This document shows positions 14,276 through 39,941 of a stretch of DNA of 64,000 bases, piece by piece (the stretch's first letter is position 1; each line of letters starts with the position of its first letter). The stretch is taken from the IMG/VR virus record IMGVR_UViG_3300050202_000023. The stretch is one strand, 5' to 3'. The position numbers and the translations under genes were made by a program. The DNA comes from an uncultured virus (IMG/VR IMGVR_UViG_3300050202_000023). Its lineage: Duplodnaviria > Heunggongvirae > Uroviricota > Caudoviricetes. The notes under the pieces were generated by a model, which worked only from the letters and a program-made list of their open reading frames with translations, was not told the DNA's origin and made no database searches.

Positions 14276-15319
14276 TTAAATTAATCCTTCAAGTACATCG
14301 TTATCTCCATCAGCAGCATAGTTAATAACATTTTGAGCTATAAATGTATGAGCTAGTGCTGTAGGGTGAACTTGATCTTGGAGGTTTGTTACGTTTGCTG
14401 TAAACGTTGTTCTAGGAATATATCGAACAAACCGGGTATCTAAAGACTCAACGTGTGCTTTTTGGAATGCAGCAATATTAGCTAGGTTTGTTTCATTTTG
14501 AGCAACCCCTAATGTTGACGGACCAAGTACAAACTTTTTCTGGTTTGGAAATAAATACCTTGATTGTTTAATTATACTTTGAAATGCATTTGTAGATGTA
14601 GTAAAAGCTGAGCCTGTTGTAGCAATTCCATTAGCTCCACCAGCATCATTAGTACCTAAACAAATAATTGTTAAACCCGGTTCACGATAGTTGTATCGCC
14701 CAGCTTTAAATGCGTTATCATGCTGTACCAGTGTTGACCCACTAACTGACCAGTTTCTAAGTCTTATATTAACTCCTTGACTTAAAAACCAGTTTCTAAC
14801 TTGAAATACCCACATTTCAGTGGCAAAACTCATACCAGATCCATCTCCAATACTATCACTAATTATATTTAGTATGAAAGGGGCATCAAAGTTAAAGTCA
14901 TCTGTAATTTGTTTACCCGTAACGTTTGAGTAAAACGTAAAAGGTATTGCTGTAGGTGCTGTTACTCCTGCTTTAGTTACACTAAGTACAGTTGGGTTTA
15001 GCCCAAGCATTCCTTGTTTTTGTGGATAATCAACGGGCATCACTAAAGGAACCCCGGCCTTTAAAGGTAATGTAAATAAACCCGTTGGGTAAGCTGGATA
15101 GAAAGCTCCGTTTCCAAACGCCATGAATGTTTGAAATACACAGTCTTCTGAACAGGCAAAACTAAGAGATTTTACAATTAATGCTCGTCCAGCTTGTACA
15201 TTAGAGCCAGCACCAAAAGGGACACTGGCGTTTGTATATGTACCTGTACTAACTCTACCCCCACCACCGGGAACTGTTCCTTCAAAATCAAGTAATTGTT
15301 TATATTCAAAATTTGTCAT
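14276..15319 (-). CDS. SGNH/GDSL hydrolase (esterase), probably tail-associated
   Basis: block motifs SDSIG, SVSG, GTND and DQVHP. Confidence 0.8.
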   Translation of the reverse strand: MTNFEYKQLLDFEGTVPGGGGRVSTGTYTNASVPFGAGSNVQAGRALIVKSLSFACSEDCVFQTFMAFGNGAFYPAYPTGLFTLPLKAGVPLVMPVDYPQKQGMLGLNPTVLSVTKAGVTAPTAIPFTFYSNVTGKQITDDFNFDAPFILNIISDSIGDGSGMSFATEMWVFQVRNWFLSQGVNIRLRNWSVSGSTLVQHDNAFKAGRYNYREPGLTIICLGTNDAGGANGIATTGSAFTTSTNAFQSIIKQSRYLFPNQKKFVLGPSTLGVAQNETNLANIAAFQKAHVESLDTRFVRYIPRTTFTANVTNLQDQVHPTALAHTFIAQNVINYAADGDNDVLEGLI

Positions 15320-15329
15320 ATTTTTTTAA

Positions 15330-17042
15330 TTATAAATTTGAAGATGCTACCCATGTACCTGATGCCCCACTTGTACCAGCTACAGTACAAGTATAATATT
15401 GTACTTGACCAACATTAGGTGATGGATTCCACGTTCTTAATCCTTTAACAAATCCTCCTGCATAAGCCGATGCTTCAGGAGGACCAAAATTAGTTACTGT
15501 TCCAGATACAGAAGCAGTAGCATCACCAATATACTGTCTATTAATACTAAAGGTTAAGTTACCTACAATTTTACTACCACTAAATAAACCTAAATAACCA
15601 GTATTTGTTGTTACATTACCAGTTAGTACAGAGTTGTTGTGTAGTTCCAATGCTCTATAATTAACATCAACATTACTATTAACTTTAGTATTATAACAAA
15701 TAGTTTTACCTTGTGACAATGCACCCCCATTTACAACACAATCTATCAAAACTATTATTGTATTTGTAGATGAAGAATTTAAAGTTGTTATTGTACAATT
15801 AATAAAAGTAATTGGAAAATTTTCATTTGCTGTAAAACCCGGATTAGCAGTATTTACTTGTACTCTTTCTAATACTAAATCATTAGTATTACCAGTTAAA
15901 TTTGCTATATATCCACCAGTAATAAATATTTTATTGTTGGCAGATCGAGCAAAATTAGGTATTAAACAATTATTAATATAAAGAAAACTACCATTACCTG
16001 CACTTTCTCCTGTTACTGGAATATTACCTTCTATTCTACCATCATTAAAATTAGTAGAAGCACCATACATATATACTCTGGCTAAAGCATCATTACTAGT
16101 ACCATCATTTGTAGCATTTAATCTAAAATTATTATATGTACTAGAAGCACCACCAAAGAACCAAGTATCTTTTATAGACCCTGTTACATAAGCTCTTTCA
16201 GAGTGAATATTATTTATAGTATAGTTAAGTGTGTCAGGAGAAACAGATATAGCTAGTTGTTTAGCCTGTTCAACTTGAAGTCTTTCAATAACACTCATGT
16301 TAGATGTATCACCTCCATTTGTTATTGAAAAAGCATACTGAGTTGCAGTACCACAATTTTCTATACTAATTGTTGTAAATATGTTATCATAGCTACGAGT
16401 AATTTCCATACCTTGACCAACACAGTTTTCAACTCGTATAAAGTCAAATTTACTAATAACTGCTCTATCTAATTTAATACCATTAAGAGTATTACCACCA
16501 CCATCTATATGTATAGAAAATCCATTAAAGGCTATATCTGTATTAGTAGTTACTGCCCAATATCCGCTGCCAGTAGGCTTGATAATCGCGTAATACGAAC
16601 TAATAAATGAACACTTAATAGTTAATCCAGAAGTAATTTTATAATTACCATCTTCAAGATAGAGAGTTTTACCTAGTGCAAAACAAGCATTTGCAGCAGC
16701 CTGTAAAAAAGTTGTAGTATCTGTTACACCAGTGTTATCAAGATTGTACCACTTTTTAGCATTAATAAAATTATTCTCTACTTGACCTATCCAACGACCC
16801 GAACCTTTTCCAGTAGCCCCTAATGTTATCCCATTGTCTATTGCAGCATTAGAACCAGATACATAAAGATACACTCTACCATCTTGTAACATTACTCTAG
16901 TTCTGAAACCAGAATAAGCTGTAAGAGCAGTAGTATCCTCTAGAATTCTATCTCTAAATCTATTTATTTCTGTAGCAATAGTAGTAGATAAGGCTAATAC
17001 CTTAACTCTAATATCTTCAACTAACTGGGGTAAAGTCATCAT
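15330..17042 (-). CDS. tailspike with a pectate-lyase-like parallel beta-helix
   Basis: GVTDTTTFLQAAAN...KTLYLEDGNY cap motif; N/I/G-rich repeats. Confidence 0.8.
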   Translation of the reverse strand: MMTLPQLVEDIRVKVLALSTTIATEINRFRDRILEDTTALTAYSGFRTRVMLQDGRVYLYVSGSNAAIDNGITLGATGKGSGRWIGQVENNFINAKKWYNLDNTGVTDTTTFLQAAANACFALGKTLYLEDGNYKITSGLTIKCSFISSYYAIIKPTGSGYWAVTTNTDIAFNGFSIHIDGGGNTLNGIKLDRAVISKFDFIRVENCVGQGMEITRSYDNIFTTISIENCGTATQYAFSITNGGDTSNMSVIERLQVEQAKQLAISVSPDTLNYTINNIHSERAYVTGSIKDTWFFGGASSTYNNFRLNATNDGTSNDALARVYMYGASTNFNDGRIEGNIPVTGESAGNGSFLYINNCLIPNFARSANNKIFITGGYIANLTGNTNDLVLERVQVNTANPGFTANENFPITFINCTITTLNSSSTNTIIVLIDCVVNGGALSQGKTICYNTKVNSNVDVNYRALELHNNSVLTGNVTTNTGYLGLFSGSKIVGNLTFSINRQYIGDATASVSGTVTNFGPPEASAYAGGFVKGLRTWNPSPNVGQVQYYTCTVAGTSGASGTWVASSNL

Positions 17043-17069
17043 TAACTAATTATAAAGTAAGTAAAAGTA

Positions 17070-17690
17070 TTATACTAAAGCTGTAGTGAAAGCTGTACTA
17101 AAAGCTGTATTAGGTGTGCCTATATCAGCAGTACTTAAAGCATCAGTAATACCATATCCAGCTAAAGTAGTAGGTTTACTAGTTATAGTTGTCCAGTCAG
17201 GAGTTACATCTGCTATAAATATATAGGAAGCCTCTACTATTTTACTACCTGTACCGGAGTATCTAAAGGCTCTACCAGTACTTGATTCAATAACTATACT
17301 ACCTACAGTAATAGCTGTTTGTTGAGGAGTAGTTAAAGCAGAGATAGTAGTAGCTACCTCACTATTAGTACCGGGCAGTACAGGTAAATTACTAAGTGAA
17401 ATAGTACCAGTAATTTGAGCAGCCGGTAAAGCAGCACCAGTACCAAGTTTACCTATTAACAGAGTATCTACTTTAGTACTTGAATACGTAGTAGTTGTAC
17501 TTGGTGTAGTATCATTAATACCTACAGCATTAGCTATACCTGCTTTGAGTTCATTAATAGCTCCTTTAATAGTTTGAGCTGTAGTAGTTAATGTAGCAGT
17601 ACCTAGTTGCGCTTTTAAATAAACGCCAATGTTAGTAGATAGTGCTAAAGTATCTACTCTAATTTGTTCAACTAATTGGGGAAGAGTCAT
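17070..17690 (-). CDS. tail fibre / extender protein
   Basis: TAQTIKGAINEL, TTYSSTKVD and KPTTLAGYGITDA fibre motifs; N-terminus paralogous to that of 15330-17042. Confidence 0.7.
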   Translation of the reverse strand: MTLPQLVEQIRVDTLALSTNIGVYLKAQLGTATLTTTAQTIKGAINELKAGIANAVGINDTTPSTTTTYSSTKVDTLLIGKLGTGAALPAAQITGTISLSNLPVLPGTNSEVATTISALTTPQQTAITVGSIVIESSTGRAFRYSGTGSKIVEASYIFIADVTPDWTTITSKPTTLAGYGITDALSTADIGTPNTAFSTAFTTALV

Positions 17691-17723
17691 TATAAAATGT
17701 ATTGATAAACATTAAAAATTAAA

Positions 17724-18017
17724 TTAAACAGTTGAAAGTAAAAATGTTTGGGTAAAGTTTGTTAAAGGGTTTCCTACATCAATAGTACCATTGGCTTCGG
17801 TACAGGCTCCTAATACAGCATTATCATAATTAGGAAGCTTAGCACCTTCTACACTATAAAATACAGCTCTACCAGTAGGAAAGGGGGGGCTAACTGTATA
17901 CTCTAAGAATCGTCTTACAGTGGTCCCGTTAACACATACTTTTTCCTCCTTCCAGTTTCTGTGGTAGTATTCAGACGTAGTATGTGTATTACAATCGCAA
18001 TCAGGTAAACAAGCCAT
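17724..18017 (-). CDS. small tail adaptor protein, paralogue of 22800-23102
   Basis: shared WKEExVCxNxxxVRRFxEY...PTGxxVxYS. Confidence 0.7.
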   Translation of the reverse strand: MACLPDCDCNTHTTSEYYHRNWKEEKVCVNGTTVRRFLEYTVSPPFPTGRAVFYSVEGAKLPNYDNAVLGACTEANGTIDVGNPLTNFTQTFLLSTV

Positions 18018-18034
18018 AATATATTAATTTAAGA

Positions 18035-19429
18035 TTAGTTGATACCTCTAATTTCTGCTGTATTTAATACAACACCAGTACCTGCTGTAGTAACATTAAA
18101 TCTAACAAATCTCCATTGTTCATTACTAACTTTAGCTTGTACTATGCCTAAAGCAGTTGTAATTGGAGTAGAGTTAAACCAGTTAGTACCATCAATAGAA
18201 AATTGAGGAGTTACAGTAGCCGCAGTAGTTTGTGCAGAACAGTTTATTGTAAAATTAAAGTTATTACATCCTTCAACATATAGTGTTTGACTTGTTGAGT
18301 TAAGTGTATTAGGTACAATAGTACGATCAATCAACTGTACTATTTGTTTTGCAGTATCATTGGTTTGTAATCTGTTAACTACTCTTGTAAAAGAAGGTGA
18401 AGTTCCGGTAACTGTTTGTACATATCTAATTCTGGCACCTCTTACAGTAATTTTTGGTGAACGATATATACCAGTTGCAGTAATTCTTGGGAAATCATAT
18501 ACTTTATACCAGTTAGTACCATTATCATCACTTTCTTCTATTGATAAATCCAATGTAGGTGTTGTACCACCTACAGCACTAACAACTATATTAGTAGAAT
18601 ATGAAGAACCAAAAGCTAAACTGATAGAACCTGATGTACTTGTTGTAGTAAGTGTACTTGATGTTATATCTACTGCAAGACTACTTGGTTGAAAGAAAAT
18701 CCCACCAATAGTATTAGTACCTGCCGGTAAAGTTGGTAAAGTCGTAATAGATGATACCGCAATAGTACCACTAACAGGTTGACTACTTAACCAAGGTGAA
18801 AAATCTTCATCAATTCTATTACAACTTACATTAGTAGTACCTGCTGTAGTAGCTGTATTAAGTCTTAAACGGAAATATCTGGCAATTACAGGAGTTACCC
18901 ATAAACCAGTATTCATAGTAGTACCTGTTAAACCAGTGGGTGCAAACATAGTAGCACCAATCCAGTTAGTATTATCATTGCTAAACTCTGGTGTTATTAC
19001 ACCACTTGTACCCATAGAAGTAATCTGAAAAGATACACTTCTGGCATTTAAGCAATCCAAAGACATTAGTATGGTGTTAATAGCAATTACTCCCGATTGG
19101 TTGTAATTAGTAGTTACCATACTTGAAGGAGTAGATAATACGTTTAATGGTGAAGCTCTTAATTGAGTATCAGTTAAACCTCTGTTTAAGTCTTCATAAA
19201 ATATTAAAAGAGCATCCGTATTATTCATTGCTGAGGTATCTCTATTTAATGTAAGTACATTAGTAGAGACACTACCACCCAATGTAGCATCTATTGGAGA
19301 ATATAGAATAGTATTATTAGTTGTGTTTATAACTGTTAATACTTGTGGTAGAGTAATACTTCCAAAATCATTAAATGTTATTTGCTTTGTTGTCTTGTTA
19401 AAGCTGTAATTATTTATAGCTATTTTCAT
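18035..19429 (-). CDS. tail fibre / receptor-binding protein with repeated beta-sandwich modules
   Basis: three repeats of S-x-D-(N/G)-T-N-W...(Y/F)xR; Thr-rich. Confidence 0.7.
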   Translation of the reverse strand: MKIAINNYSFNKTTKQITFNDFGSITLPQVLTVINTTNNTILYSPIDATLGGSVSTNVLTLNRDTSAMNNTDALLIFYEDLNRGLTDTQLRASPLNVLSTPSSMVTTNYNQSGVIAINTILMSLDCLNARSVSFQITSMGTSGVITPEFSNDNTNWIGATMFAPTGLTGTTMNTGLWVTPVIARYFRLRLNTATTAGTTNVSCNRIDEDFSPWLSSQPVSGTIAVSSITTLPTLPAGTNTIGGIFFQPSSLAVDITSSTLTTTSTSGSISLAFGSSYSTNIVVSAVGGTTPTLDLSIEESDDNGTNWYKVYDFPRITATGIYRSPKITVRGARIRYVQTVTGTSPSFTRVVNRLQTNDTAKQIVQLIDRTIVPNTLNSTSQTLYVEGCNNFNFTINCSAQTTAATVTPQFSIDGTNWFNSTPITTALGIVQAKVSNEQWRFVRFNVTTAGTGVVLNTAEIRGIN

Positions 19430-22230
19430 TTATGATAAAATTATGGCGTTTATAAAGGAGTTATTTGCTTGTTGGTTGTTCCACTGTGTTATTGTACCAG
19501 TATAACCTTGTTGAACGGCTATTTGATAAGCAGATAAACCAGTTGCCCCTGTGAGATTTATACCAGTAATATTAGTACCTGTTTCTAAAATAGAAGCACT
19601 GTAATTATAATCTGAAGTAATTAATGATTGTGCTGATTGTCCAGATATAGTTAAGTTTACAAAAGCAGCTCTATAAAATATACCTGTAAAACCATTTATT
19701 ATGCCACCAATTTTAGTAATTGTACCTGTTGCATCACTATAAGATGTTAATGGAATAGAAGAAGTAGCTACATTTATACCATTAATGTATAACTTCATTA
19801 TACCACCTTCTACAACTAACGCATATTGAATTAGTACATTATTAGTGTATGTGCTATTTGTTGTTATTTCATCTCCATTTGTGTTAGAATATAAAAAACC
19901 AGATACTTTACTACTATATCTATATGCTATACCATATTGAGTAGTATTATTTGTAGCATACATTCTTCCCATTAATCCAACATTATCTTGTCCTGATAAA
20001 GTAGGTTTAAACCAACCTATCATTAAAAAATTAGGACTACCTAAAGCTTTAAAATCACCTAAAGCACCTAAATCAAGATAATTCGCAGAATTACCATCAA
20101 AAGCTAATCCGGTTCCAGAATAAGTTAATCCATTTCCTTTTACTATAGCATCAGTACCACCACTAATTAAGTTTTTTAATACAGTATTATTAGCTAATGT
20201 CGTGTTAGTTCCTTTAGTAGCAGGATTAGTAATGTCAAACAGACCAATTGTTCCATTAANNNNNNNNNNGTACTTAAAACATCTGATTGTCTAAATATTT
20301 GATTTGTAGCATTAATCAATAATGGACTATACCCATTTGGAATTACTACAGCAGGAGTACCAGAACCAGAAGATGTAGAAGAGCCATCTACTTGAGTAAT
20401 TGCAGCAATAGTTGTTTGTACTCTTGCTTTAGCATCTACAGCAATAGATACTTCAATACCAGATATACCCTTTACTCTAACTTTAATGGTTTTGTCTGTT
20501 TTATTCTCTATAACAGTTTGTCTATTAACATTAGGTAAAGAAACAATACCATCTAAAGGAGCAGTTCCAGTAAATCTAACAAATTCATATTGAGCATCTA
20601 TCTCATTTATAGAAGCACTAACTGGTACAACATAGGGTAATGTAATTGTAACACTTTCACGTCTTACATTAATAAGTCTATTATTTTTACCAGCAGTATC
20701 ACCTACATGATTAGAGTTATACGGTGTAGTTATATTACCACCTGTAACGGTATTATTAGATGAATTAGTACCTAAAAACTGAACACCAGCATATAAGACT
20801 CCAGAAGTAGCACAATCAAATATATTATCTTCAAGTATATTATTGCTACATTCTAAATTAAGATTAGCTTCTAATAGTATACCATAAATACCTTTTGATT
20901 TTATAATATTGTTTTTGAAAACTGTTTCTCTGTTGTTTTGAAAAGTTATCCAACCTCCAGAATTTATGTCAACTACATCACCAGTTTCAAAATAGTTATC
21001 TTCAATACTACCTTTTAGTAGATTCTTGAATACAGCATGACCATTGGTATTACCAGATACTGATTTATTATTTCTAACTACAGGATTTACAGTAAGCAGT
21101 TCTAAATTATTAGGACCATTTTCAACACTTATATAAGATAAACTTCTGTTTTCTTCAACAGTTCTTCTTGTAAAATTATAGAAGCTATTATTTTCAATTA
21201 ATAGTTGCTGAACACCTCCTACAGCTTCTAATCCAATATTGTAGGCATTATCTACTATATTGTTTGTCATTCTAACAATATTACCCTCACCTGATACAGA
21301 TATAGCCATACCGTGATGATCTCCCGCATCCGCAGAATATATACCAGTATTTTTGAATTGGTTATTATCAAATATCAGATTTTTATAACAAAGTACCCCT
21401 AATGCTCTATTGTTGGTTATTTCAAAACCAATTCTACCAATATTTTCAAATATACAATCTGTAATATAAACATTTTCAACAAATTTGTTAACTGAATCTA
21501 TAGTAAATTTTAAACCGTTTGTATTACAAGTAGGTGCAGAAAAATAACATTTATCAAAATATATATCTTTTAAATTCTTCTCAGCACTTGTTATTAAGCC
21601 ATAATAGTTTCTTACAGAAGATGTACTTGTACTAACAAAACCGATATTACTAAATCTAATATTAGTAGCATTGTCAGCAAAATTAACCATTTCATTAGTA
21701 CTACAAGTAAGAATAGTTTTATCTAATCCATCACCTGCTATAGAAACATTGTTTGATGAAAAAATAAAACTACCTACTCTATATGTACCTGAAGAAATGT
21801 AGAGAGTTTTTTTCCAAAAAGAAGCAGCTTGTATAGCATTAGTCAAAGCTGTAGTATTATCTACTACACCACCATCAACTAAATTAAACCAGAGTTTAGC
21901 ATCTCCATCAAATTCACCTATCCATCTACCAGATCCTTTTCCAGTGGCTGATAGTACAATACTATTGTCTATTGTAGCTGTACTGGAAGATACATAGTTA
22001 TATACTCTACCGTCAGTTAAAATCAATCTGTTAATTGTACCAGAATAAGATGTTATATCTGAAGGGGTTTGAAATATATATGGTTGATTTATAGGATAAG
22101 ATATAATCTGTCCTGTACTATTAGTAACATATATATCAAAACCAGTACCAACACGTACAAAATAAATAGTATCTTTTATTAATGTGTTAGGTAAAGTTGC
22201 TACTACCTTTTCAACTCTAAACTCAGCCAT
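19430..22230 (-). CDS. tailspike: beta-helix plus C-terminal LamG-like domain, one gene split by the N gap at 20260-20269
   Basis: GVVDNTTALTNAI cap motif and beta-helix repeats. After the gap, an open frame (NGTIGLFDI...GLAFDGNSANYLDLG) joins ORF 19430-20023 (GWFKP, MKLYING, GLSAYQIAV). Confidence 0.75.
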
Positions 22231-22232
22231 AA

Positions 22233-22775
22233 TTACCAGTTAATAGTACTCCAGTTTTTTACTTCATCTCCATTATAATTAAGTACTCCATTAACAACAG
22301 ATAATAAATCTAATTGTGTTTTATTAGTGTGGGTATGACTATTAGTAACAGCTAAATCTATATTAGCAGGGCTGAAAGTAGGTTTACCAGTAATATTAGC
22401 CCAAGATAAAACCATATCAAGACTTTCAAACTCAGCTATCTTAGTCCAAGTACTAGTACCCGGATTAAAAACATAGGTAGCACCACCAGTAGAAACTGTA
22501 ACATCTCCTGTAGCATTAATAACATAAGCTAATGTGACTACAGAAGGAGCTAAAGCATTTCTAGCAGTAATATCATTTACTACTCTGGTAGTGTTTATAC
22601 TAGACAATTGGGCTGCTATGAGTGTATTAATCATAGCACTATTACCAATAGATCTGGCTACACCAGATGAAGAAGTTATATAACTTTCTGCATAAGTGTT
22701 ATTTTGAACAAAATAAACAGCATTAGGATCTAATGAACCGGGTAAAGAAGTTACTTTGTGAAACTTGAGTTCCAT
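22233..22775 (-). CDS. tail extender / adaptor protein
   Basis: N-terminus FHKVTSLPGSLDPNAVYFV is paralogous to the tailspike N-terminus; VNDITARNAL and WANITGKP motifs. Confidence 0.7.
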   Translation of the reverse strand: MELKFHKVTSLPGSLDPNAVYFVQNNTYAESYITSSSGVARSIGNSAMINTLIAAQLSSINTTRVVNDITARNALAPSVVTLAYVINATGDVTVSTGGATYVFNPGTSTWTKIAEFESLDMVLSWANITGKPTFSPANIDLAVTNSHTHTNKTQLDLLSVVNGVLNYNGDEVKNWSTINW

Positions 22776-22799
22776 TATATAATGTATTTAATTTAAAAT

Positions 22800-23102
22800 T
22801 TACCAATCAATTTGTACTAATGTATTATCATTATCTAAAGAGCCCGTACTAGATCCACAAAGACCCAGAGTGTAGGATGTAGGAGCACTAATAGCTATAC
22901 CAGTTTCACTATAATAAACAATGTTACCAGTCGGTAAACCAGTAGCAATAAAGTACTCTACAAATCTCCGTACAGGAATATTATTAGCACATACCCATTC
23001 TTCCTTCCATTTAGAAGTTTTAGGTTTTTCTAATAAATTACCGGATGGAGTATACTGTATTGGTTTGTTACAGCAAATCTCAGGAAGAACATCTATATAC
23101 AT
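22800..23102 (-). CDS. small tail adaptor protein, paralogue of 17724-18017
   Basis: WKEEWVCANNIPVRRFVEY. Confidence 0.7.
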   Translation of the reverse strand: MYIDVLPEICCNKPIQYTPSGNLLEKPKTSKWKEEWVCANNIPVRRFVEYFIATGLPTGNIVYYSETGIAISAPTSYTLGLCGSSTGSLDNDNTLVQIDW

Positions 23103-27721: not shown

Positions 27722-30700
27722 TTATGCACAGGGTTGGTCAAGTTTAAAGTCATCTGAGCTTTGATCCCCAAATAAATCTTCGGGAGATATTCCATTATTA
27801 CTAAGATCAGTGGGTATATACTCAGATTCAGGATCATACAAGTCGGTAAAAGTACGTCTAGGTGGTGGTGTATTCTGAGCATCTACTTCATTTACAAAGT
27901 GAATTGGGTTTGTTGAGTTAATATAAAGACTGTCCGATACCCGGCTTAATCCTACATAACTAAGTGATTGTTTTTCAGAACCAATTTGAATACCGTTTTG
28001 AATTAGCAGTGAGCTGTCTTCTCTTGGCAATGTATCAGTGTCAAAAAATACTTTAGGAATACTAGTACCTTGAGACTTGTGTATCGTAATAGCATGACCA
28101 AAATCAATTGACTTGCCAATAAACAAGTGTGAATTCTTCTCTTTTAAGTCTTTATGATACTTAAGAGTTTTAACAAAAGGTACAACCTTGTCTTGAGCAG
28201 GATCAAAAATGTAATCATTTCCTGTTAAAGCTCGTCTAAAAAAGTCTTGAACCGTTGTTTCTTTTGTATCATAGGTTTCCCAATAAATCTCTTTTCGAAT
28301 AGCTTTTTGCTTTGTTTCATGTAAATCTCTAAACACATTACTTAGCAATTGATTATTCTTATCAAAATCAGCTTGAGTTAACTCACTAAACGTAAAAGCA
28401 TCCTGTGTACTTAATTGATAATACGTTCCGTAACCTTTATTAGACTCCAGATTAATACCCAGTTCAATAAGTTTATCCAGCTTAGCCGAGGAAGTTACCA
28501 GTTTATAAAGACTTCCATCTTTAGTTACATTGTCAATTTTATACAGCATACTATTACCAATATCGTTTCGGTCTACTTGTTTTGAGTTGTAACCAGCATA
28601 TCCAACAACTATATCATCTTTTTTCAAGTCACCTTCCCGTTCAAACAAGTCACGAATTTTAATATTCCATGCTTTAGCTCCAGCATTTGTATAAGATAGC
28701 ATAACCGTGTTTAACGGATCTTCACTAAATACTCTGCCAATAGCTTTATCCCATTCTCTACCGGCAACATAATTTAACTTATCGTTGTGTTCAGCTAGTT
28801 TAAGAATACGAGAATCTACAACAGTTCTTAAACGTCCTAGTACAGTAAGAATATCTGTATTACTGGTACGTTTAACTTCAGTTAGTTTTAACTGGTTAGG
28901 CTCAGTAAAGGCTTTAGAAACTTCTTTTGTTACTGGGTTTTTAACATTTACTGCTGGAATCTGAACAGGGTCTCCCATAAACACAACCTTAATGTCCTTG
29001 GCTTTAACAACCTCTTTTAAGTTGTCGTATTCTGCCGGACTTAGCATAGACACTTCATCAATTACCAATATGTTATTAGAATTTTTTAGCCGTTCAGCCA
29101 TTTTCTTTCTAATCTGTACAGTAGACTTACCCGTTCTATTATCAAAACTAGCTCCCCAAGATGAAGTAGTTGTCAAAGGAAGTTTAGTGTTTCCCGTTTT
29201 AGCTGTAGCAAACGCTAATTCTACACTGGCTGCATGAGTAGGTGCTGAATAAACAAAGTTGTGTCTATTCAAATACTTCTCAAGGTATCCAATGAGAGCC
29301 GTTTTCCCGGAGCCTCCCGGTCCTTGTAAAGTAATAAAGTCTTCATTAGTATCCCCTAAAGCAAAATCAATTAATCCTTTAAGTGCTTGTTCTTGACCGG
29401 CAGTAAGCTGAAACGCTGTATCAATAGTTTTACCTTTGTGAGTAAATGTAAATCCAGTTTTAGATTCTATTAATTCCTCAGTAGGTTGTTCTAAAGGTTT
29501 AGTAGCAATCTGTGGGTTTAGTCCGCCATTATTATTATAGGCATCAAGTATTTTTTGTTTTCTTTCTTGATACTTTATATTGGTTTCTGAGGCAGACTGT
29601 TTAATATCTACATCAACAGCTAAGCCAGAATTGTCTAAAGTTACTTTAAGTATTTGACCGTAGTAATTATACTCTACTACAGTACTTATAGATTCTTGAA
29701 CAGGGTTTACCTCTGACTTAAATGTTTTTGTATAAACATCTCGAATAGCTTGTAATGATTTATCAATTACTTCTTGAGTACTTAATGTTCTACTTCCAAT
29801 ACCAGCAAAGTTTTTAGTTAATGCAGGTGTCGGCACTTTTATAAAGTCACGTCCACTCCAAGTAAACCAAGAATCTTTTGTTCCATCATATATATAAACA
29901 GGCTTATTCTCATTTATAGCCATTTGTACAGCATAGCCTGTACCACCTTTAACTTGATCAATTAATGCTTTTTTACCATGATCCATTATAGCTCCTTTGG
30001 GAATTATAGTACCTAAAGCATATACAGCATCTGCATACTTTACCTGAGCCCAGTTTCTAATCATATAATTACTTCGTACTTGATGATTAGATTCTATTCT
30101 ACCCATCTGTCTAGCAGCTATAGTAGCTTTAGGTTGACCTTCATCATAAATAGCTGTATCAAGTTCTGTAGCTTTAACTCCAGCCTTTCTTAGTTCCAAG
30201 CTATCAACTTCTGTAGTTCCGGGTTCTCTGTAGTGTTTGTGATTAACAACACCAAACTCTCTTCCAATAATATCCCAAGCTGCATCAGAAAGTTTAGCAC
30301 CCCCTGTATGGTTTGTATAGTCTTTTGGATTAGTACTAGTCTGAGTTGATTCTGTTGTATTTTCAGTAGTGTTCATACCACTAATGTACGAAACATCTAC
30401 CTGATTATCAACACTATACAGATCATTTTCTAACAAAGTGCTTTCTTCCTCATAATAGCTAATGTCTTCTACATCGGCTTCATAGGTTTGTTCAAATGGA
30501 TCAAATGAATCGTCAATACTAGTAGTAGGTACTACAGTTTCAATAGCTGAAACAGGGTTTGTCTTAGTCTGACTAAGCATTGTATAATATACTTTAGCCG
30601 CACCTGTACTAAGCTGTACATGCTTGTTCAACAAAGATTTATTGGCTTCTGTATAGTGGTCTCCCAGTGCATTAGCAGAAGAAACATTTTTGGTACCAGC

Positions 30701-33700
30701 ATGAACTACCTGTACATACCTAGCTCTGGTACCTTTATACGAAGTACTATTCTGTAAGTCTGATGGTGTATACTGTTGTCCATTAGGTGTTATTAGACTA
30801 GCTAGCTCATAGGTAAAGGGTTTTAACGTGTTTTCATCTGAGTCTTCATCATAGACCTCTTGTTCCATGACAATAAACTTTGGAAACGTACCTATATTTT
30901 TTTCAATCTTTATTCGAAGACCTGTTGCAACCCGGAAAGAATCCTCTTTATTTAAGACAGGAATAGTAATAACAACTTGATTACTTACTTTATCTTGTCT
31001 GACTCCTTGCAAGTTTTCGTAGTAAAGTACTTCATTATCTTCAAACAGACTATAAAGTTCTGATGTAGTTTTTGGAGGTTTAATCCGTTCAATTAATGGT
31101 TGGTACGTTATATCCCGACCAAGTGCATTAGCTAGTTTAGCTGCCCCACCATTAATGTCAAAACCAGAACCTTTAAAAATACTTGTTAACCGATTTGATA
31201 CAGACGTAAATATAGAAGGTCCAAATAGTTTACTAATTGATTTCATGGTAAACTGCCAACCATCTTTAACAATGTAATAGTTAACCAATTCATCAGCTAG
31301 TCCTTTACCAAGTAGGTAATATCCTTCAACCCCGTCAATAGTTGTTAATACCTGACGGGTGTATAAATCCTGAAAGCTATCCAGTAATTCTTCCTGTTGT
31401 TCAGGACGAAGTTTACCAATAGTATTTAAGTTAATGGCAGCAATCTCCTGCCTGTCTTCAGACTGAAGTAATGAAAATAATGAATTATCCGCAAATGGAC
31501 CTTTTTCAACTTCACCAGTAGTCTCGTTTATACGGGTATATGCATACTGAGCTTTAAAATTATTTAACTTCTCACTAATACGAGCTTCAGCACCATCTAC
31601 ATAAACACTATTTAATTCCAGTGGTGTAGATGTTGATTGTTCTTGATGCAGTGTAGTAAAGGTAAATGTCTCAATAGCTTTATCCAATAGCTCTTTTTTC
31701 TCAGCACCAAATGCTTTAAATACTACCGATAGTTTATCTTTAAAGAAATCAAAGAAAGGTGACCGTCTAAATAGTACTTCTCGTTGACGTTTATCACTTT
31801 GAGGAACAAGGTCGTTTATAAGCTGTAAATACTGTGCAGCTTTCTTTGGGTTACTATCTAGTTTTTCATAAATATCAATCGGAAACTCACCGTCTTTTCC
31901 AAACTGTAAGTTTTTAGAAGCTCGTACTAAACCATCAAATGCAGCAAGATCCTGACCAAATCCTTTTTTAAGTTTGATAAATTTAACCAGATTACCAGCA
32001 TAATCACTTACCCGAAGCATTCGAATGAAGTCAGCAAGTACAGCCTCATTAAGTGTTTTGGTATTAGGTGCTGCTGTAAAAGCAGTTTGTTGTTCTTTAG
32101 TAGCTTTACTATAAGCTAGAGCAACACGCAGTTCTTTAGTAGTATACTCCCGGGTTGATATAGAGTCATCAACACCTAGTTTAAGTATTTTCTTAGCAAT
32201 TTGGTCATCTGATAATGTACCAAGAATCTTTTCACTTGGTATAACAATACCTGTATTAGCCTTAACATTTTTAGCTTGTTGTCTAAGTTGAGTAAACTGT
32301 TGAACAACAGGTTGGTTAACAAATATCAGCGAGTCTTCAAGACTATAGCCTTGTCCAACCATGTGTATAACAACAGACTGAGCATCCCCATTAAGTTTAA
32401 AGAAAGCATTCTTTCCTTCTTTAGCTTCGTCTGTATTAGCTGTAGTAATAGTTGAGATAATATCAAATACACGTACAGGTAAACCACTAGCATCTAATAC
32501 AGGTGATCCGTCAGAATAATACTGCTTCTCTTTATATAGACCATCATGAAGCTTACCATCATTAAAAGCCATTCTAAATGATGGATCAACACTAAACTGA
32601 AACTTAACAGCATTGATCATAAACAGGTTAGCATTAACTGAAACGCCAATCAATGCTTTACCAATCTGATTCTTTTCATGAATCTGGCTGTGTACCATTG
32701 GCCACCATGAAGCTGCCCGGTTTGATGTATCACCAAACAGATTAACACCGTTTTCTTTTGAATCCTGAATGTTGTTATACTTATCAAGAGAAGCAGGTTG
32801 GTTGTACTGACCACCATTAGGATCAGTGTCATCAAGTGTTGTCGAGTTAGCCAACATAGACTGTTGTAAAGCCAACATCTTATTATGTGTAGCCCCAACA
32901 TTTAATGTATTCTGACTACGATAATTCAGTTTATTGAATTCGTCAAATGTAGCAGGAAAGCCAAAGAAACTTAGAGCACGACCAACAGCTTTTTGATACG
33001 ACTTGTTTAGATCCTGTTTACGTTGTTCTAGCGTACCACTTGTATACTCAGCCCAAGCCTCATCATCAGTTAAATCAGTAAGAGTCTGAGTTACTTTTTC
33101 AAGTTCAGCTTTTACATCTTTAAACTCAGGCTCAAGTAGTATTTTCTTTAATTCTTTTTTGATTGACGGATAATTAGCTAAAGCATACTTGGTAAACTCT
33201 TCCCATTTACCCATAGTAGTTTCGGCTGTGCCATACGGAGTAAATACATCACCAGTCCAGTAACCTTCTGTACGAGTCTGATAAAGTTTATCAATATCAA
33301 AGTCAGAACCTGATAGTTCAATAATTTCTTTGGTCAATACAATACTGCTACCCATATACTCAGGTAGTGTATCAACCCATTCTACGTTTACAGCAGAGTG
33401 TTTATCCTGAGACGGAATACGTACACCAAATGAGTACCGAAGACTTTTATCAATGTTAGATATACGTAAATCATGTACAGGCATTAAAGCCTCATCAAAG
33501 TAACCAGTCTCAACTAGTTGCTTATTAACAGTTTCCCAACGAGGTTTAGCATGTCTAAGTGAATCAAGTACATAGACAACAGGAGTCATTGTATTACTTA
33601 ATGACGTAGTACTCATGGTAGGACTACTAGCTAATAATGTCTTAGCCTGAGTAAACCAAGAATCAACTTTATTACCTTTAGAATCCAGATAGAATTCGGG

Positions 33701-36700
33701 CTCAACACGTTGTTTACTGTTATCGGTGTTTGTCTGATATTCGTGTTTATATCTAGCATCACGAAGGTTTGTCAGATTATCAAGAGCCCCCTGTCGTTTT
33801 AATGCTTTGTACTCATCAGAGCCAGTACGAATAGTATCCCACGTCAAATAACCAGCTTCGTTTCTGTATACTTTCTTAACCAGTGAATAGTCCAAACTGG
33901 ATACGTGAGCCAGTGAGTCACCGGCACGGCTATGACTTAACACACCTTTTGAAAAGTGGGTAAAGAAAAGACTTATAAACTTATCTCTGGTTAATGGTAA
34001 GTTTAAGTTATAGCCTGATGCAGGGTCAAATAATTGAGCTGTTTGTTTATCCGTACCAGTTTTAACAACTGTTTCAAACGCTTTTTGTAAATACCGTTTT
34101 AGATCAAGATTACCAGCAGCATCCTCAAAAAGCTTGTCAGCAACATTATAGTTAATCCGGTCACGACTAGTTAAGTATTCCTGCCAAAGAAGCTCAGTTT
34201 TGTTTTTATCCAAAAACTGATCTTTAAACCAGAACTGGGCATCTGGTCCAAGCTCATTAGCAATAATCTCAACCATTTGAGTCGGATCAACAATGTGTTC
34301 GTGACCAGATGGTGTTTCTGACTGAAGTCCGTAATAGTTTAAGTCAAACAGGTTTACATTTTTATCCTCAATAGAAGTCCAGTCAACTGTTTGTTTATCC
34401 GTTAATTTAGTATGTACGTTAGCATTAAGTGTTTTACTGGCTGTTAATGGAGTTACCAGATCAATACGAGCATCAACACTGTCAAATACCCAGTTACCAT
34501 CTACATACTTAAAGCCCTCCATACGAAGACGTTTAGCATGAAGATTTTCCCGACCAATAATAGGTACCCACCTGTAATAATTACCACCATACGTACTTAC
34601 CTCAATACCATCCTTTTTAAGTTTGATACGGTTGTACTTATCTATAGTAGCATTTCTATAAAATTCTTCCTCTGAAATTAATTCAGGTTCTGACGTTACT
34701 TCTTTCGTTAAAACAGATACAGACAGTTTTTTATACTGTTGTCCATCATCCCCAACAGTTTTTTCCGAGTTAAGCATAACTCCGGCAGCATTAAGATTAT
34801 CAATGTCTGCTTTAGTTCTGGGCTCACCCTTATCAATCTTGTCTAGTATATTAGATACCTGAGTAGTCAGCTTACCTTGAGCATATAAACTTATTCGTCT
34901 TGAATGAATTGTATCATGTCCCTGAGCATCAGCAATGTCAACAGAATTACCGGTAACGTCAGAATTTGCTGTTGGTTCAGCAGTAGTTACTATATTAAAA
35001 TACTGTGGGGCTTTATCAATACTCAGTTCGGGTGCTGCAAAAGGTACAGCAAAGCTTTGAATGGCAGCATTAAATCCCTTAGCCCGTTTGGCATTATCAA
35101 TACCGTCATTTTTATAAAGTAAAGCAGCATCTCCGTATTCAATTTGACCAATAGCTACACCATTAAGAAAGTCAGAAACCAGCTTAGTTTCTAATAATTC
35201 TTTGGTCATTTTTCGATCAAGTACTTTAGTAGGCTCGTCTCTGGTAAGATTCCATAGACCATGTTTAGCATATCTGGCTTTGTGCTGATAAATAATATCT
35301 GATACACTTTTTTGCAATACATCTTTATGAGCTTCATAGTCAAACTCAATATCAAGAGCAGCTTGTACAACTAGGTTTTCAATACCCGTATTAAGACCCG
35401 GTATAGCTTGAGTATTACCCAGTAGCCCAATAAGTGTATCAGAAAATTGTAGCCCACGATAATCTTTACTATTAGTAGGTACATATATTTCTACCGATAC
35501 ACCTTTATAATCTACCGTTTTCTTTAGTAAAGCTTTACCAGTATTATAGTTTGTTAGTACATCTGTACTATCAAAAGTTGGTGTTGTTTTGCCATAGGTA
35601 ATACCTTTATCTACAAAGTCAGTAATTATTAAACTTTTATATACATTTCTTATACGATCATACTCCTTTTTAATTTCGTCCAAAAATAAAGTAGAACCAG
35701 CATCTGTAAGTTTACCTTCTTTAATAACGTTTTCCAGTACTGGTACATTTAAATACTCACCAGTTTTAGAAGCCTCACGGTTTCCAAGAAATACCGGGGC
35801 AATCCGTTTACCCTTTACAATAGTAGCTGTAGGACCAACAAATGAGTTTAAATTAAACAGGTCAAACTCTCTTGGAGATAGATCACCAAAGGTTGTACCG
35901 GTTAAAGCAGTTGCTCCAGCTTTAGATGTAGTTACATCTTTCTCATTTCTGGTTAAATGAGTTTGTTGTAAACCATCTACTGAAAATGCAGTAAACAAGT
36001 GCTTGTTTTCCTGATAAAATGAATCAGAAAATAGTTTTTTTAGTAAATGGTTTTCCTGTAAAGCCCAAGCATCTTCTTTAAGATAGATAGCTTCACCGTT
36101 ATTATATCGAAGTAATGTACGTTGTCCGGTTTTATATAGATTACTTAGTTTACTTAGTGAACTGTCTGTAAACCAAGTAAACATATCAAGACTGTATGTT
36201 TTCTTCTGGAACGAATAAATTACTTTGTCATTAGCATTAACATAACTTGATTCAGTGGCTGTTTCGTCAAACAAGGCATTACCCTCAGCAATATTTTTAA
36301 TACTGCTTAGCATACCACTTAACCGGCCAAGTTTAAGAGCCTCTTTATTATCAGTTATAGCAAACGGGGAATACTGAGCCTGTCCATTATATTCTTTAAT
36401 AAGCTTTACATCGACTGAAGTAAATTGATATTGTTTTGGTATGTCAAACATACCAATCAATTTACCAGAAGGTGTAGCTTCAATTGTAGGAGCCCACTGA
36501 GGATACTGTCTAACTGCTTCTGTGGTTAAGACATACTGAACGTAGGCATCCGACAGTTTAATACCAGCCTGACTAAATAAGGCTTTAAACTTTTTGGATT
36601 CTGCTTGTACAGCTTGGGTAAACTGCTGTTTCTTTTCTAAATCATCCAGACTGTTAAAAGCATCCTGTTCAGCCGTAAGTTTAGTTGAGTTTGTTTTTGG

Positions 36701-38731
36701 TAAGAAAAAATCATTCAACCAAGCATCTGGTATTTCTGTATTAGCTTTATTAGAAAGTCCGTTATAGTTAGCTTTCCACTTTTCAAGTAAGTCTTTTCCA
36801 GCCCGGTTTGTATTGGCATTACTACTTACAGACAAACCACGTACCGGGTCAATCCGCATGTTAATGTTTTCCCGTTTCCAGAGATCAAACCCTTTTAATG
36901 TTCGAACCAGTAACTGTTTACTAGCTGAAGATAAGTATGTACCTAGTGAATTATTATCAATGTGATAAAATAATTCTTCTTTAATTCTCCCTGTATTGGT
37001 TTCTTGAAGTTTTGTAAAATAAGTTTTAGCTTCTTTATAAGCTTCTTTTTTAGCTAACTCGGGATTAGCTGCCTGTAAAGCAAAAGCAAGCTGTAACGGA
37101 CTTTCTGGAGTCTCAGTTAATCCCAGTTCTTTAATTAATGAATCTAGTTCTGGCTTAGCCTTATACGTAATAGGAGCCATGTCTTTTAACAACTGGTCAG
37201 CAAAAGCTCCTGTAGCATCTGTATCATCAAAGCTGGTATAAATTAACAGCTTCTTTAACCGTTCATTTAAGTCAACTGTGTTACTGACAGCCCGTACCAA
37301 TCCGTAGTAAACCTGATTTGTGTTTACAATATCAATAATAGGTAGCTCAAACTCAACACCGCCAGTCTTGATTTTATGATATTGTAGCACACCATCAATT
37401 TGCCGGTGTTTACCAGTTAACGCAATGTATTGTTTAATACTGGCAGAAAGTCCGTTGTATCCACCAAGCTCGTTAGCTTCTTTTCCGTATCCAGAAAATT
37501 CCTGCATTCTGGCTCCAAACTCATCTTCATCAAGTTCATCCTGAAGATTAGTCACAACCTGTGAGTTAACTAAATATTCTTTAACATCAGCCGTTATAGC
37601 AGAATACTCCGGGTTATCTTCAAGTACTTTAAAGTCCTGAGCATTTCTCCGGGTTGGGGATAAAGCACCAGCAATTAACCGATACTGTTTAGCCAGTACG
37701 GTACCATTAACAGAAGTACCCTTATACTTTTCTTTAATAGCTACAGCCTGATCAAGATACTGTTTAGAAAAAGCTTCAATAGCTATCTGTATACGTTGTT
37801 GTTCAGATAAATCTGAAGTTTCATCTCGGTTTTTAAGTTGTAAAGCAAGACCAGATATATTCCTGATTAGCTGTTCACTTTCCCGTTGGTGTACTTTAGT
37901 ATCATCAGCCAGTGTAATAAGTCTGGTAGAAGGTGCAGCAGTCTGTGGATTTGAGTCTACAATCCGGGCAGTTTTATACTCACCTTGATTTATTTTGTTA
38001 TAAAAAGTTGTAGCATAAAACTCGTTTGCTTTGTACAAAGACCTAAGCTTGTCCAGTCCTTTATATAAGGTATCAATAAGTTGCTGTACAAACCGGGCTA
38101 CTTTTTGTCCAAGAAATGGTTTTAGTCTAGACTCTAAATCCAACCGTGCCTGTTTAGGTGTACCATATACGGTGTGCCGTACATAGTCCTGAGCCAAAGC
38201 TTCTTCATACAACCGATTGTATCCGTCCTGTTCAGATAGTATACTATAAGTTTCCGGCAATGTCTTTAACTGGTATTGGTAGTATTCTTTAATGCTGGAG
38301 AACCCAAGGGCCTTTAGCTGAGACTTTAATAACGCTTGTCCAGTCTTATACAGAGCTTCCTGCTCGTTGAGTGGGATAAGTCGTTGGAATACAGCGTGAA
38401 AAACTTCTTCAGATAAAGCCCCTCGGGTTATGTCCTTGCCAAAATAAAATACATCTTTCCAGAAAGCAGCTTCTGTAGTCTGTGGAACAAGTGCTGGAAT
38501 AGACTCAATTGAATCCATCTTAAACAAGTCCAGATTAACTAACGTGTTCAGTAATTGATATGCTTGTTCCGTTGGTAGTACATCAGATTCTTTTTGATTT
38601 TGATAACTATCAAATGAGGGCATCCAGAAATTATGTTGAGCATAAATCTGGTAGGTCTTTGCTAGACCATAGGTTTCAATAAAACGTCTGTTGTTAGGTT
38701 CTGACTTGTTCAGACAAAGCAATTGTTTCAT
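27722..38731 (-). CDS. virion-packaged RNA polymerase polyprotein (3669 aa) with a SLOG-like insert and a C-terminal SF1B helicase
   Basis: GVRIPSQDKHS and catalytic GSDFDIDK (about 33287-33310); helicase motifs GPGGSGKT, IDEVSM, GDPVQIP, TIHKSQG and YVGLSR. Confidence 0.85.
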   Translation of the reverse strand: MKQLLCLNKSEPNNRRFIETYGLAKTYQIYAQHNFWMPSFDSYQNQKESDVLPTEQAYQLLNTLVNLDLFKMDSIESIPALVPQTTEAAFWKDVFYFGKDITRGALSEEVFHAVFQRLIPLNEQEALYKTGQALLKSQLKALGFSSIKEYYQYQLKTLPETYSILSEQDGYNRLYEEALAQDYVRHTVYGTPKQARLDLESRLKPFLGQKVARFVQQLIDTLYKGLDKLRSLYKANEFYATTFYNKINQGEYKTARIVDSNPQTAAPSTRLITLADDTKVHQRESEQLIRNISGLALQLKNRDETSDLSEQQRIQIAIEAFSKQYLDQAVAIKEKYKGTSVNGTVLAKQYRLIAGALSPTRRNAQDFKVLEDNPEYSAITADVKEYLVNSQVVTNLQDELDEDEFGARMQEFSGYGKEANELGGYNGLSASIKQYIALTGKHRQIDGVLQYHKIKTGGVEFELPIIDIVNTNQVYYGLVRAVSNTVDLNERLKKLLIYTSFDDTDATGAFADQLLKDMAPITYKAKPELDSLIKELGLTETPESPLQLAFALQAANPELAKKEAYKEAKTYFTKLQETNTGRIKEELFYHIDNNSLGTYLSSASKQLLVRTLKGFDLWKRENINMRIDPVRGLSVSSNANTNRAGKDLLEKWKANYNGLSNKANTEIPDAWLNDFFLPKTNSTKLTAEQDAFNSLDDLEKKQQFTQAVQAESKKFKALFSQAGIKLSDAYVQYVLTTEAVRQYPQWAPTIEATPSGKLIGMFDIPKQYQFTSVDVKLIKEYNGQAQYSPFAITDNKEALKLGRLSGMLSSIKNIAEGNALFDETATESSYVNANDKVIYSFQKKTYSLDMFTWFTDSSLSKLSNLYKTGQRTLLRYNNGEAIYLKEDAWALQENHLLKKLFSDSFYQENKHLFTAFSVDGLQQTHLTRNEKDVTTSKAGATALTGTTFGDLSPREFDLFNLNSFVGPTATIVKGKRIAPVFLGNREASKTGEYLNVPVLENVIKEGKLTDAGSTLFLDEIKKEYDRIRNVYKSLIITDFVDKGITYGKTTPTFDSTDVLTNYNTGKALLKKTVDYKGVSVEIYVPTNSKDYRGLQFSDTLIGLLGNTQAIPGLNTGIENLVVQAALDIEFDYEAHKDVLQKSVSDIIYQHKARYAKHGLWNLTRDEPTKVLDRKMTKELLETKLVSDFLNGVAIGQIEYGDAALLYKNDGIDNAKRAKGFNAAIQSFAVPFAAPELSIDKAPQYFNIVTTAEPTANSDVTGNSVDIADAQGHDTIHSRRISLYAQGKLTTQVSNILDKIDKGEPRTKADIDNLNAAGVMLNSEKTVGDDGQQYKKLSVSVLTKEVTSEPELISEEEFYRNATIDKYNRIKLKKDGIEVSTYGGNYYRWVPIIGRENLHAKRLRMEGFKYVDGNWVFDSVDARIDLVTPLTASKTLNANVHTKLTDKQTVDWTSIEDKNVNLFDLNYYGLQSETPSGHEHIVDPTQMVEIIANELGPDAQFWFKDQFLDKNKTELLWQEYLTSRDRINYNVADKLFEDAAGNLDLKRYLQKAFETVVKTGTDKQTAQLFDPASGYNLNLPLTRDKFISLFFTHFSKGVLSHSRAGDSLAHVSSLDYSLVKKVYRNEAGYLTWDTIRTGSDEYKALKRQGALDNLTNLRDARYKHEYQTNTDNSKQRVEPEFYLDSKGNKVDSWFTQAKTLLASSPTMSTTSLSNTMTPVVYVLDSLRHAKPRWETVNKQLVETGYFDEALMPVHDLRISNIDKSLRYSFGVRIPSQDKHSAVNVEWVDTLPEYMGSSIVLTKEIIELSGSDFDIDKLYQTRTEGYWTGDVFTPYGTAETTMGKWEEFTKYALANYPSIKKELKKILLEPEFKDVKAELEKVTQTLTDLTDDEAWAEYTSGTLEQRKQDLNKSYQKAVGRALSFFGFPATFDEFNKLNYRSQNTLNVGATHNKMLALQQSMLANSTTLDDTDPNGGQYNQPASLDKYNNIQDSKENGVNLFGDTSNRAASWWPMVHSQIHEKNQIGKALIGVSVNANLFMINAVKFQFSVDPSFRMAFNDGKLHDGLYKEKQYYSDGSPVLDASGLPVRVFDIISTITTANTDEAKEGKNAFFKLNGDAQSVVIHMVGQGYSLEDSLIFVNQPVVQQFTQLRQQAKNVKANTGIVIPSEKILGTLSDDQIAKKILKLGVDDSISTREYTTKELRVALAYSKATKEQQTAFTAAPNTKTLNEAVLADFIRMLRVSDYAGNLVKFIKLKKGFGQDLAAFDGLVRASKNLQFGKDGEFPIDIYEKLDSNPKKAAQYLQLINDLVPQSDKRQREVLFRRSPFFDFFKDKLSVVFKAFGAEKKELLDKAIETFTFTTLHQEQSTSTPLELNSVYVDGAEARISEKLNNFKAQYAYTRINETTGEVEKGPFADNSLFSLLQSEDRQEIAAINLNTIGKLRPEQQEELLDSFQDLYTRQVLTTIDGVEGYYLLGKGLADELVNYYIVKDGWQFTMKSISKLFGPSIFTSVSNRLTSIFKGSGFDINGGAAKLANALGRDITYQPLIERIKPPKTTSELYSLFEDNEVLYYENLQGVRQDKVSNQVVITIPVLNKEDSFRVATGLRIKIEKNIGTFPKFIVMEQEVYDEDSDENTLKPFTYELASLITPNGQQYTPSDLQNSTSYKGTRARYVQVVHAGTKNVSSANALGDHYTEANKSLLNKHVQLSTGAAKVYYTMLSQTKTNPVSAIETVVPTTSIDDSFDPFEQTYEADVEDISYYEEESTLLENDLYSVDNQVDVSYISGMNTTENTTESTQTSTNPKDYTNHTGGAKLSDAAWDIIGREFGVVNHKHYREPGTTEVDSLELRKAGVKATELDTAIYDEGQPKATIAARQMGRIESNHQVRSNYMIRNWAQVKYADAVYALGTIIPKGAIMDHGKKALIDQVKGGTGYAVQMAINENKPVYIYDGTKDSWFTWSGRDFIKVPTPALTKNFAGIGSRTLSTQEVIDKSLQAIRDVYTKTFKSEVNPVQESISTVVEYNYYGQILKVTLDNSGLAVDVDIKQSASETNIKYQERKQKILDAYNNNGGLNPQIATKPLEQPTEELIESKTGFTFTHKGKTIDTAFQLTAGQEQALKGLIDFALGDTNEDFITLQGPGGSGKTALIGYLEKYLNRHNFVYSAPTHAASVELAFATAKTGNTKLPLTTTSSWGASFDNRTGKSTVQIRKKMAERLKNSNNILVIDEVSMLSPAEYDNLKEVVKAKDIKVVFMGDPVQIPAVNVKNPVTKEVSKAFTEPNQLKLTEVKRTSNTDILTVLGRLRTVVDSRILKLAEHNDKLNYVAGREWDKAIGRVFSEDPLNTVMLSYTNAGAKAWNIKIRDLFEREGDLKKDDIVVGYAGYNSKQVDRNDIGNSMLYKIDNVTKDGSLYKLVTSSAKLDKLIELGINLESNKGYGTYYQLSTQDAFTFSELTQADFDKNNQLLSNVFRDLHETKQKAIRKEIYWETYDTKETTVQDFFRRALTGNDYIFDPAQDKVVPFVKTLKYHKDLKEKNSHLFIGKSIDFGHAITIHKSQGTSIPKVFFDTDTLPREDSSLLIQNGIQIGSEKQSLSYVGLSRVSDSLYINSTNPIHFVNEVDAQNTPPPRRTFTDLYDPESEYIPTDLSNNGISPEDLFGDQSSDDFKLDQPCA

Positions 38732-39847: not shown

Positions 39848-39853
39848 TCACAT

Positions 39854-39936: not shown

Positions 39937-39941
39937 CTTAT

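Follow-up and report, generated by a model that had tools for sequence, protein, structure and literature searches.

Matched gene ends as candidate plug-and-socket joints in two parallel fibre cassettes of a putative crAss-like phage

How might a phage direct different enzymes to its particle when the proteins that carry them are made separately? The question is raised by a stretch of 64,000 nucleotides (nt) from the uncultured virus IMGVR_UViG_3300050202_000023, here called the window, which is the first part of a 124-kb linear virus record with a completeness estimate of 84%. It holds two gene cassettes, A and B, each with a small anchor, an extender and a spike in that order (Table 1). An earlier reading of the DNA by itself (the sequence-only reading) had proposed that a C-terminal peptide on anchors and extenders fits an N-terminal domain on extenders and spikes. 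We call the C-terminal motif of the upstream protein a plug and the N-terminal motif or domain of the next protein a socket, and we distinguish three pairings, codes A, B and C. We consider it likely that matched end and start motifs of these three kinds act as plug-and-socket joints, linking separately made, probably trimeric proteins into tipped virion fibres; physical docking, presence in the virion and depolymerase activity are all things that we infer from sequence.

The starting observations are sound. All six open reading frames (ORFs) described, with their coordinates and termini, are present on the minus strand, with gaps of 0-33 nt between cassette genes. The anchors are paralogous, sharing a core at 40% identity over 67 amino acids (aa; E 8e-17), and the spikes share a module (residues 52-154 of spike A and 33-138 of spike B, 50%, E 1e-25) behind starts that differ. 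Within each cassette, extender and spike begin alike: the identity is 37% over 38 aa in A, and 17 of 21 residues match in B, whose extender and spike genes have 5' ends that are similar at the DNA level too. When scored against termini of the window genome, the B plug pair outscores all 159 background termini and the B socket pair all 162. As for code A, only 4 of 167 ORFs in the genome end in tryptophan (W) and 3 in [DN]W, two of the latter being anchor A and extender A; extender A matches phrog_7946 (E 1e-63), and the start of spike A matches phrog_7980 over residues 1-50 and the socket profile at E 7e-26. Two paralogous anchors with swapped plugs are new here, and they would provide a natural swap experiment on specificity.

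The idea that spikes carry only the N-terminal domain stands for spike B, in whose C-terminus no plug was recognised, but not for spike A. The end given for spike A, 20194, results from reading the ORF across a scaffold gap of 10 N and is thus an artefact; the frame beyond the gap ends in a plug of a third kind. This frame is likely the C-terminal part of spike A and otherwise a separate gene; zero nt lie between its stop and the ATG of the following 464-aa gene, which matches a virion structural protein family (phrog_5838, E 1e-4). Cassette A is thus likely to have a fourth piece, the 464-aa protein, joined via a third plug/socket pair. The sequence-only reading described codes A and B and overlooked code C.

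Its gene-order rule holds across unrelated phages for codes A and B (family sizes throughout are lower bounds). For code A, we fetched 62 loci (44 + 18) by the tip socket alone, to avoid selection on the plug. The tip socket was recovered in 59 of them, 56 with an upstream ORF, and the gene before it ends in W in 53 of these 56 (52 with W-x4/5-W). There were also 56 extender sockets, and for the 54 with an upstream ORF the preceding gene ends in W in all but one (53/54). A terminal W is found on 51 of 53 complete extenders, on none of 50 complete tips and on 10 of 301 other, background ORFs. The misses comprise two loci in which a methylase gene separates extender from tip (L206, L211), one locus with a broken extender (L194) and a fragment (L213); in L206 and L211, both plug and socket are kept despite the intervening gene. 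When compared without their plugs, the anchors (n = 54) form 12 unlinked groups, the largest with 40 members. Full-length relatives of extender A (45-58% identity) occur in Pseudomonas prophages, Microcystis phages, Deinococcus, Meiothermus and metagenomes, and the terminal W is invariant across 40 aligned extenders from very different hosts. The spacing between plug and next gene varies from about -7 to +25 nt, and the cargo behind the sockets is freely variable.

For 84 of 84 non-redundant A sockets the nearest neighbour has the same role, which separates extender-type from tip-type subfamilies. The plugs differ in a parallel manner: anchor plugs have E or D before the last W in 26 of 35 cases, and extender plugs have T at -4 in 28 of 39 and N at -2 in 29 of 39. 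The plugs of anchor A and extender A in the window match the same anchor/extender split. The split among the sockets is explicable by shared descent; the acidic residue kept in unrelated anchors is suggestive only of two sub-codes within A that would impose a fixed order. Two further observations concern A loci. In L198 (1702-3372) and L199, extender A is followed by a gene for a GH20 glycoside hydrolase, behind which a tip-type socket lies in frame; either cargo can thus be N-terminal to the socket or two genes follow one another without a stop between them. In another crAss-like contig (L174:1163-3540) a code-A cassette follows Cys-rich genes, and its anchor and that of the window are unrelated.

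Code B required more sensitive methods. Direct searches with extender B mostly matched an internal fibre repeat, and scans with the B N-terminus gave nothing before profiles were used. A two-sequence profile then found proteins with both the N-terminal helix and the plug, and a profile built from these relatives alone, without the window sequences, matches extender B at E 9e-12. Relatives occur in 124 GenBank phage records, and 7 diverse ones were chosen among the 40 listed: CcrBL9, phiM12, Burley, phiK7A1, Pumpernickel, Finch and RHph_N46. In 7/7 the N-helix common to the extender and the following gene scores above all 162 background termini, and in 5/7 the end of the upstream gene matches the end of the extender at a rank of 3 of 159 background termini or better; the code-B anchors of these phages are unrelated to each other. 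In 160 loci of one large lambdoid prophage family (L271-L430), socket B opens the gene that follows the extender in 158 of 159 cases (157 recognised by pattern and one by eye), and in L404 extender and tip are read as one fused ORF. This family keeps extender B and a 130-aa tip between the terminase and a head-joining gene. Code-B relatives often lie among head genes, next to those for capsid or terminase, and one is annotated as a head fibre. The fibres may therefore sit on the tail, the neck or the head, and the earlier label of tail cassettes names only one of these possibilities. We also considered whether code-B extenders correspond to the head filament of phiCbK and dropped the idea: gp76 has been proposed for that role (PMC3556154), and phiCbK is absent among the code-B matches listed (40 of 124 and 60 of 796 records).

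Socket C returned nothing as a single-sequence query; once profiles had been built, relatives turned up in viral contigs and cyanophage B23. Of 35 loci selected by socket C, 34 have an upstream gene that ends in a hydrophobic peptide of the IAxAIAL(G) type, and in the remaining one the socket lies inside a longer ORF. One such end, NNSIAFAIALG in L237, is close to the plug C of the window. Taken together, the three codes look orthogonal, as the sequence-only reading had proposed for two of them, and true cross-pairing was not seen among the A, B and C loci. The 110 A sockets are preceded by 106 A plugs and by no B or C plug, the 158 B tips by 157 B plugs and by none of type A or C, and the 34 C sockets by 32 C plugs under a stricter pattern and by no B plug; six of the C loci also match the loose A pattern, but only because they end in GW. 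These plug patterns were written after the data had been seen. Codes may also be switched: short genes of 70-75 aa that start with socket A and end in another plug fitting the next start (L231:2980-3200, L209:2885-3433, L170:7558-8113, and likewise in several Pseudomonas loci) are putative adapters. A further candidate pair involves socket-A genes of 91-111 aa that end in a V-x-x-NG/HG/YG-type strand (L007-L080, L184, L193, L202, L218, L229, L232), followed by genes that start with a conserved R-P-L ... L-x-EF ... GDT motif.

Table 1. Cassette genes of the window and a neighbouring gene, by position
Feature	Positions	Strand	Description
Anchor A	22800..23102	-	100 aa; Cys-rich start; core common with anchor B; ends in plug A, LVQIDW (~22800-22820)
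Extender A	22233..22775	-	180 aa; residues 1-46 (22638-22775) form socket A and 62-116 a small beta domain; plug A, WSTINW, at the C-terminus
Spike A, N-terminal part	20270..22230	-	socket A at residues 1-49 (22084-22230), then predicted pectate-lyase-like beta-helix
Scaffold gap	20260..20269		10 N, inside or just after spike A; true length not given by the sequence
Open frame past the gap	19430..20257	-	275 codons; LamG lectin domain (PF13385, E 8e-8); ends in plug C, NNSFINAIILS
464-aa gene	18035..19429	-	socket C at residues 1-82 (19184-19429); weak F5/8-type-C and DUF6385 matches
Anchor B	17724..18017	-	97 aa; Cys-rich start; core common with anchor A; ends in plug B, DVGNPLTNFTQTFLLSTV
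Extender B	17070..17690	-	206 aa; socket B, helical and N-terminal; fibre repeat at residues 160-190; plug B, DIGTPNTAFSTAFTTALV, at the C-terminus
Spike B	15330..17042	-	570 aa; socket B at the start; predicted beta-helix
GDSL/SGNH esterase gene, neighbour of spike B	14276..15319	-	PF13472, E 2e-8; phrog_5240 tail fibre, E 4e-5

What do these parts look like? Spike A is predicted to be a right-handed, pectate-lyase-like beta-helix, with PF12708 (E 3e-8) and PF13229 (E 1e-6) both above cut-off. Spike B has no Pfam hit; features from the ESM Atlas together with structure point to the same kind of beta-helix, and spike B is homologous to spike A. Both spikes are predicted sugar-degrading tips, and the LamG part is predicted to bind sugar. 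The three codes are new here: the sockets have no match to a Pfam family or a PDB sequence, and a Pfam scan of the extender A and B alignments came back empty; PDB sequence searches returned nothing for sockets or spikes, and the B profile matched only an internal repeat of the collar fibre 9d93. Anchor A has no Pfam or PHROG match. In an AlphaFold2 model of extender A with a predicted local distance difference test (pLDDT) score of 69, a four-strand socket is confident and the plug region disordered; socket A modelled alone reached a pLDDT of 77. No clear fold match was found for either model: Foldseek on extender A returned nothing, VIA gave best Z scores of 4.5-4.7, within background, and the top matches of socket A, likewise within background, were the trimerisation domains of collagen XVIII (Z 4.7, root-mean-square deviation 2.7, 52 residues aligned) and collagen XV (Z 3.8).

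The sequence-only reading had likened the arrangement to donor-strand pilus assembly, an analogy for which none of our analyses gave support. In the chaperone-usher pilus, terminal peptides set a gene-encoded order of anchor, repeating unit and tip, as proposed here, and an N-terminal donor strand completes an Ig fold with the help of a chaperone and an usher. The sockets of the window are a beta domain of 50 residues, a helix and a domain of 80 residues, and no pilin, chaperone or usher family was found among the 30 window proteins scanned with Pfam and PHROG.

A closer parallel comes from phage fibres, among which an anchor-extender-tip chain has a published precedent, with a different joint and without detectable homology. 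The neck fibre of the Anabaena myophage A-1(L) is built of gp82, gp81 (about 14 trimers) and gp80, with the genes in the same order, as shown by co-expression, size-exclusion chromatography coupled to multi-angle light scattering and electron microscopy (PMC10966104). As in the window, three adjacent genes encode anchor, extender and tip, the tip has a carbohydrate-related module and the genes lie apart from the main structural operons; the head-to-tail joining of A-1(L) is what we propose here too. In A-1(L), however, the joint is made by an N-terminal beta-hairpin of gp81 on a globular C-terminal domain; in the window a short C-terminal peptide would face an N-terminal domain, to judge from the genes. 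The anchors share only 6-18 terminal residues with the extenders, which suggests a polarity opposite to that of A-1(L), and A-1(L) has one fibre type where the window has two parallel cassettes and three codes. BLAST of the window proteins against gp80, gp81 and gp82 gave no hit at E 0.05. Homology of socket A to gp81 was rejected, as the only profile match was a 28-residue internal stretch (119-146).

Other systems share single aspects of the design. In the T4 long tail fibre, gp34, gp35, gp36 and gp37 are joined in gene order, and, as proposed for the window, these separately encoded segments meet C-terminus to N-terminus, in T4 with fixed stoichiometry (PMC3004832). No T4 segment has the same end at both joints, so none can repeat. 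The branched receptor-binding protein systems of the Klebsiella phages KP32, K11 and KP34 attach a second depolymerase through a short conserved peptide and a partner domain, as phage engineering has shown (PMC13352976); there the added spike brings the peptide, at its N-terminus, to a domain within the first spike, which makes a branch, in contrast to the C-terminal peptide and linear chain proposed here. No T4 gp10-like branching domain family was found in Pfam and PHROG scans of both spikes, and fold searches of the spike N-parts were not aimed at it. Phages GP4, VP1 and A1002 have chain-like fibres of many small subunits, in which a rope protein carries dimers threaded onto it through beta-sheet augmentation, with no terminal plug described in the accessible text (PMC13730344). 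A fibre dimer gene of the GP4 gp80 type (L431:5112-5986) is found directly upstream of the code-B anchor in the Caulobacter phage CcrBL9, and this anchor may be a rope protein. Literature searched with general terms, supplements excluded, held no description of the three codes, and the available parts of PMC3556154 and 10.64898/2026.05.12.724579 do not describe these motifs.

How, then, might the fibres be put together? The two paralogous anchors would attach to the same kind of particle site via their shared core and Cys-rich starts. Perhaps it is these starts, which resemble those of other genes in the genome, that make the attachment; the fibre hubs of crAss001 are disulphide-linked (PMC10172136). 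As the plugs differ, each anchor would recruit only its own chain. Plug A (W-x4-W) would lead to extender A, spike A, plug C and the 464-aa protein, and plug B to extender B and spike B, with the extenders serving as spacers. Extender B may repeat several times, like gp81 in A-1(L), and extender A would more likely be used once. Because the two B sockets match so closely, nothing visible prevents extender B from docking on itself, which suggests that polymerisation is likelier for B; for A, the subtypes of socket speak against it. We regard it as an even bet that at least one of the extenders polymerises. We hold a broader proposal tentatively, as one that could well be wrong: phages would share a small kit of orthogonal, portable plug/socket codes, three of which would be used here for two fibres; the anchors would differ functionally only in the swapped C-terminal plug; at least one extender would polymerise until a plug-less enzyme tip caps the chain; adapters would convert codes; and fibre architecture could be both read and rewired from 6-18 terminal residues.

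Several points weigh against joints of this kind, beginning with the sampling. The code-A counts overstate independence, since the loci are redundant and share ancestry and one anchor group dominates; the diversity of the anchors is stronger evidence than the number of loci. Anchor A itself is atypical, having the terminal W only, where W at -6 is present in 34 of 35 related anchor plugs. The continuity of spike A is unproven by public contigs, none of which bridges the gap at 20260-20269 and two of which end there. In code B, phiK7A1 and Pumpernickel fail the plug-pair score (2/7). Relatives of anchor B were not found in GenBank phages, nor relatives of either anchor in the fetched loci outside their own genome, so that the attachment role of the anchors is pure inference. 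In the lambdoid prophage family, wherever an ORF precedes extender B (158 of 158 loci) it is a terminase and not an anchor, and no further gene ending in plug B turned up over 55 kb and 36 kb surrounding two of these loci; an adjacent anchor is therefore not required for code B.

The lambdoid arrangement, with extender B and its tip placed after the terminase gene and before the head-joining gene, is what would be expected if each protein with an N-terminal domain attached on its own to a shared particle site, while the C-terminal peptide served some other purpose, for instance closing the trimer or binding a chaperone. Where several spikes attach in parallel, they usually do so through shared N-terminal anchoring domains, and the nearest matches of the socket A model, weak as they are, are to trimerisation domains. 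Such parallel docking fails, however, to explain why the plug sits on the gene before the socket, on 12 unlinked groups of anchors and on none of the complete tips, or why, in three codes, the kind of plug goes with the kind of socket, and we regard it as unlikely. Alternatively, the matching termini could be relics of duplication that serve as recombination junctions for swapping modules, or reflect translational coupling, with no protein interface at all. The similar 5' DNA of extender B and spike B, the tight spacing of the genes and the freely variable cargo would all suit this explanation. What makes it very unlikely is the invariance of the terminal W among aligned extenders, the variable distance between plug and next gene and the persistence of plug and socket across the methylase insertion. 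Finally, the chain could be real and yet belong to a secreted or cytoplasmic polymer or a tail-assembly scaffold, rather than a fibre on the particle. The cassettes lie far from the main head and tail genes, both here and in MaMV-DC, and virion proteomics for relatives was not found, a further point that counts against placing the fibres on the virion. Yet the cargoes are tailspike-type beta-helices and lectins, relatives lie among head or tail genes and are annotated as fibres, and the neck-fibre genes of A-1(L) are likewise far from its other structural genes (PMC10966104), which makes such a non-virion chain very unlikely.

If plug-and-socket joints do link these proteins, three gene families so far labelled hypothetical would gain a function, with members in Pseudomonas, Microcystis, Caulobacter, Sinorhizobium, Gordonia and marine phages, and the order of multi-protein fibres would become predictable from gene ends. 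Small orthogonal peptide-domain pairs could also be useful as protein connectors. The gain would lie in new joints and a direct test of them, and not in a new principle, the anchor-extender-tip design having already been published.

Turning to the rest of the genome, a match to CrAss_Ring_2 (Pfam) at 62839-63429, barely above cut-off, together with PHROG matches to virion proteins suggests a crAss-like phage; no informative Pfam match was found for the presumed capsid and portal genes. Only one public sequencing run contains this DNA, a plant metagenome, from which it may have come. The esterase gene next to spike B has no recognisable plug or socket, and it is one of two GDSL esterase genes among the fibre-like genes of the genome, the other being L443:5724-7232. 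Close to the C-terminus of a 3669-aa virion-strand protein (27722-38731) lies a helicase domain of the Dda type, an uncommon feature in what is presumed to be an ejected cargo protein. At 39347-43383 a block of structural genes is interrupted by four HNH endonuclease genes on both strands, and a gene of 1821 aa, presumed to encode the terminase (L444:3057-8522; G000 87057-92522), contains several intein and LAGLIDADG domains.

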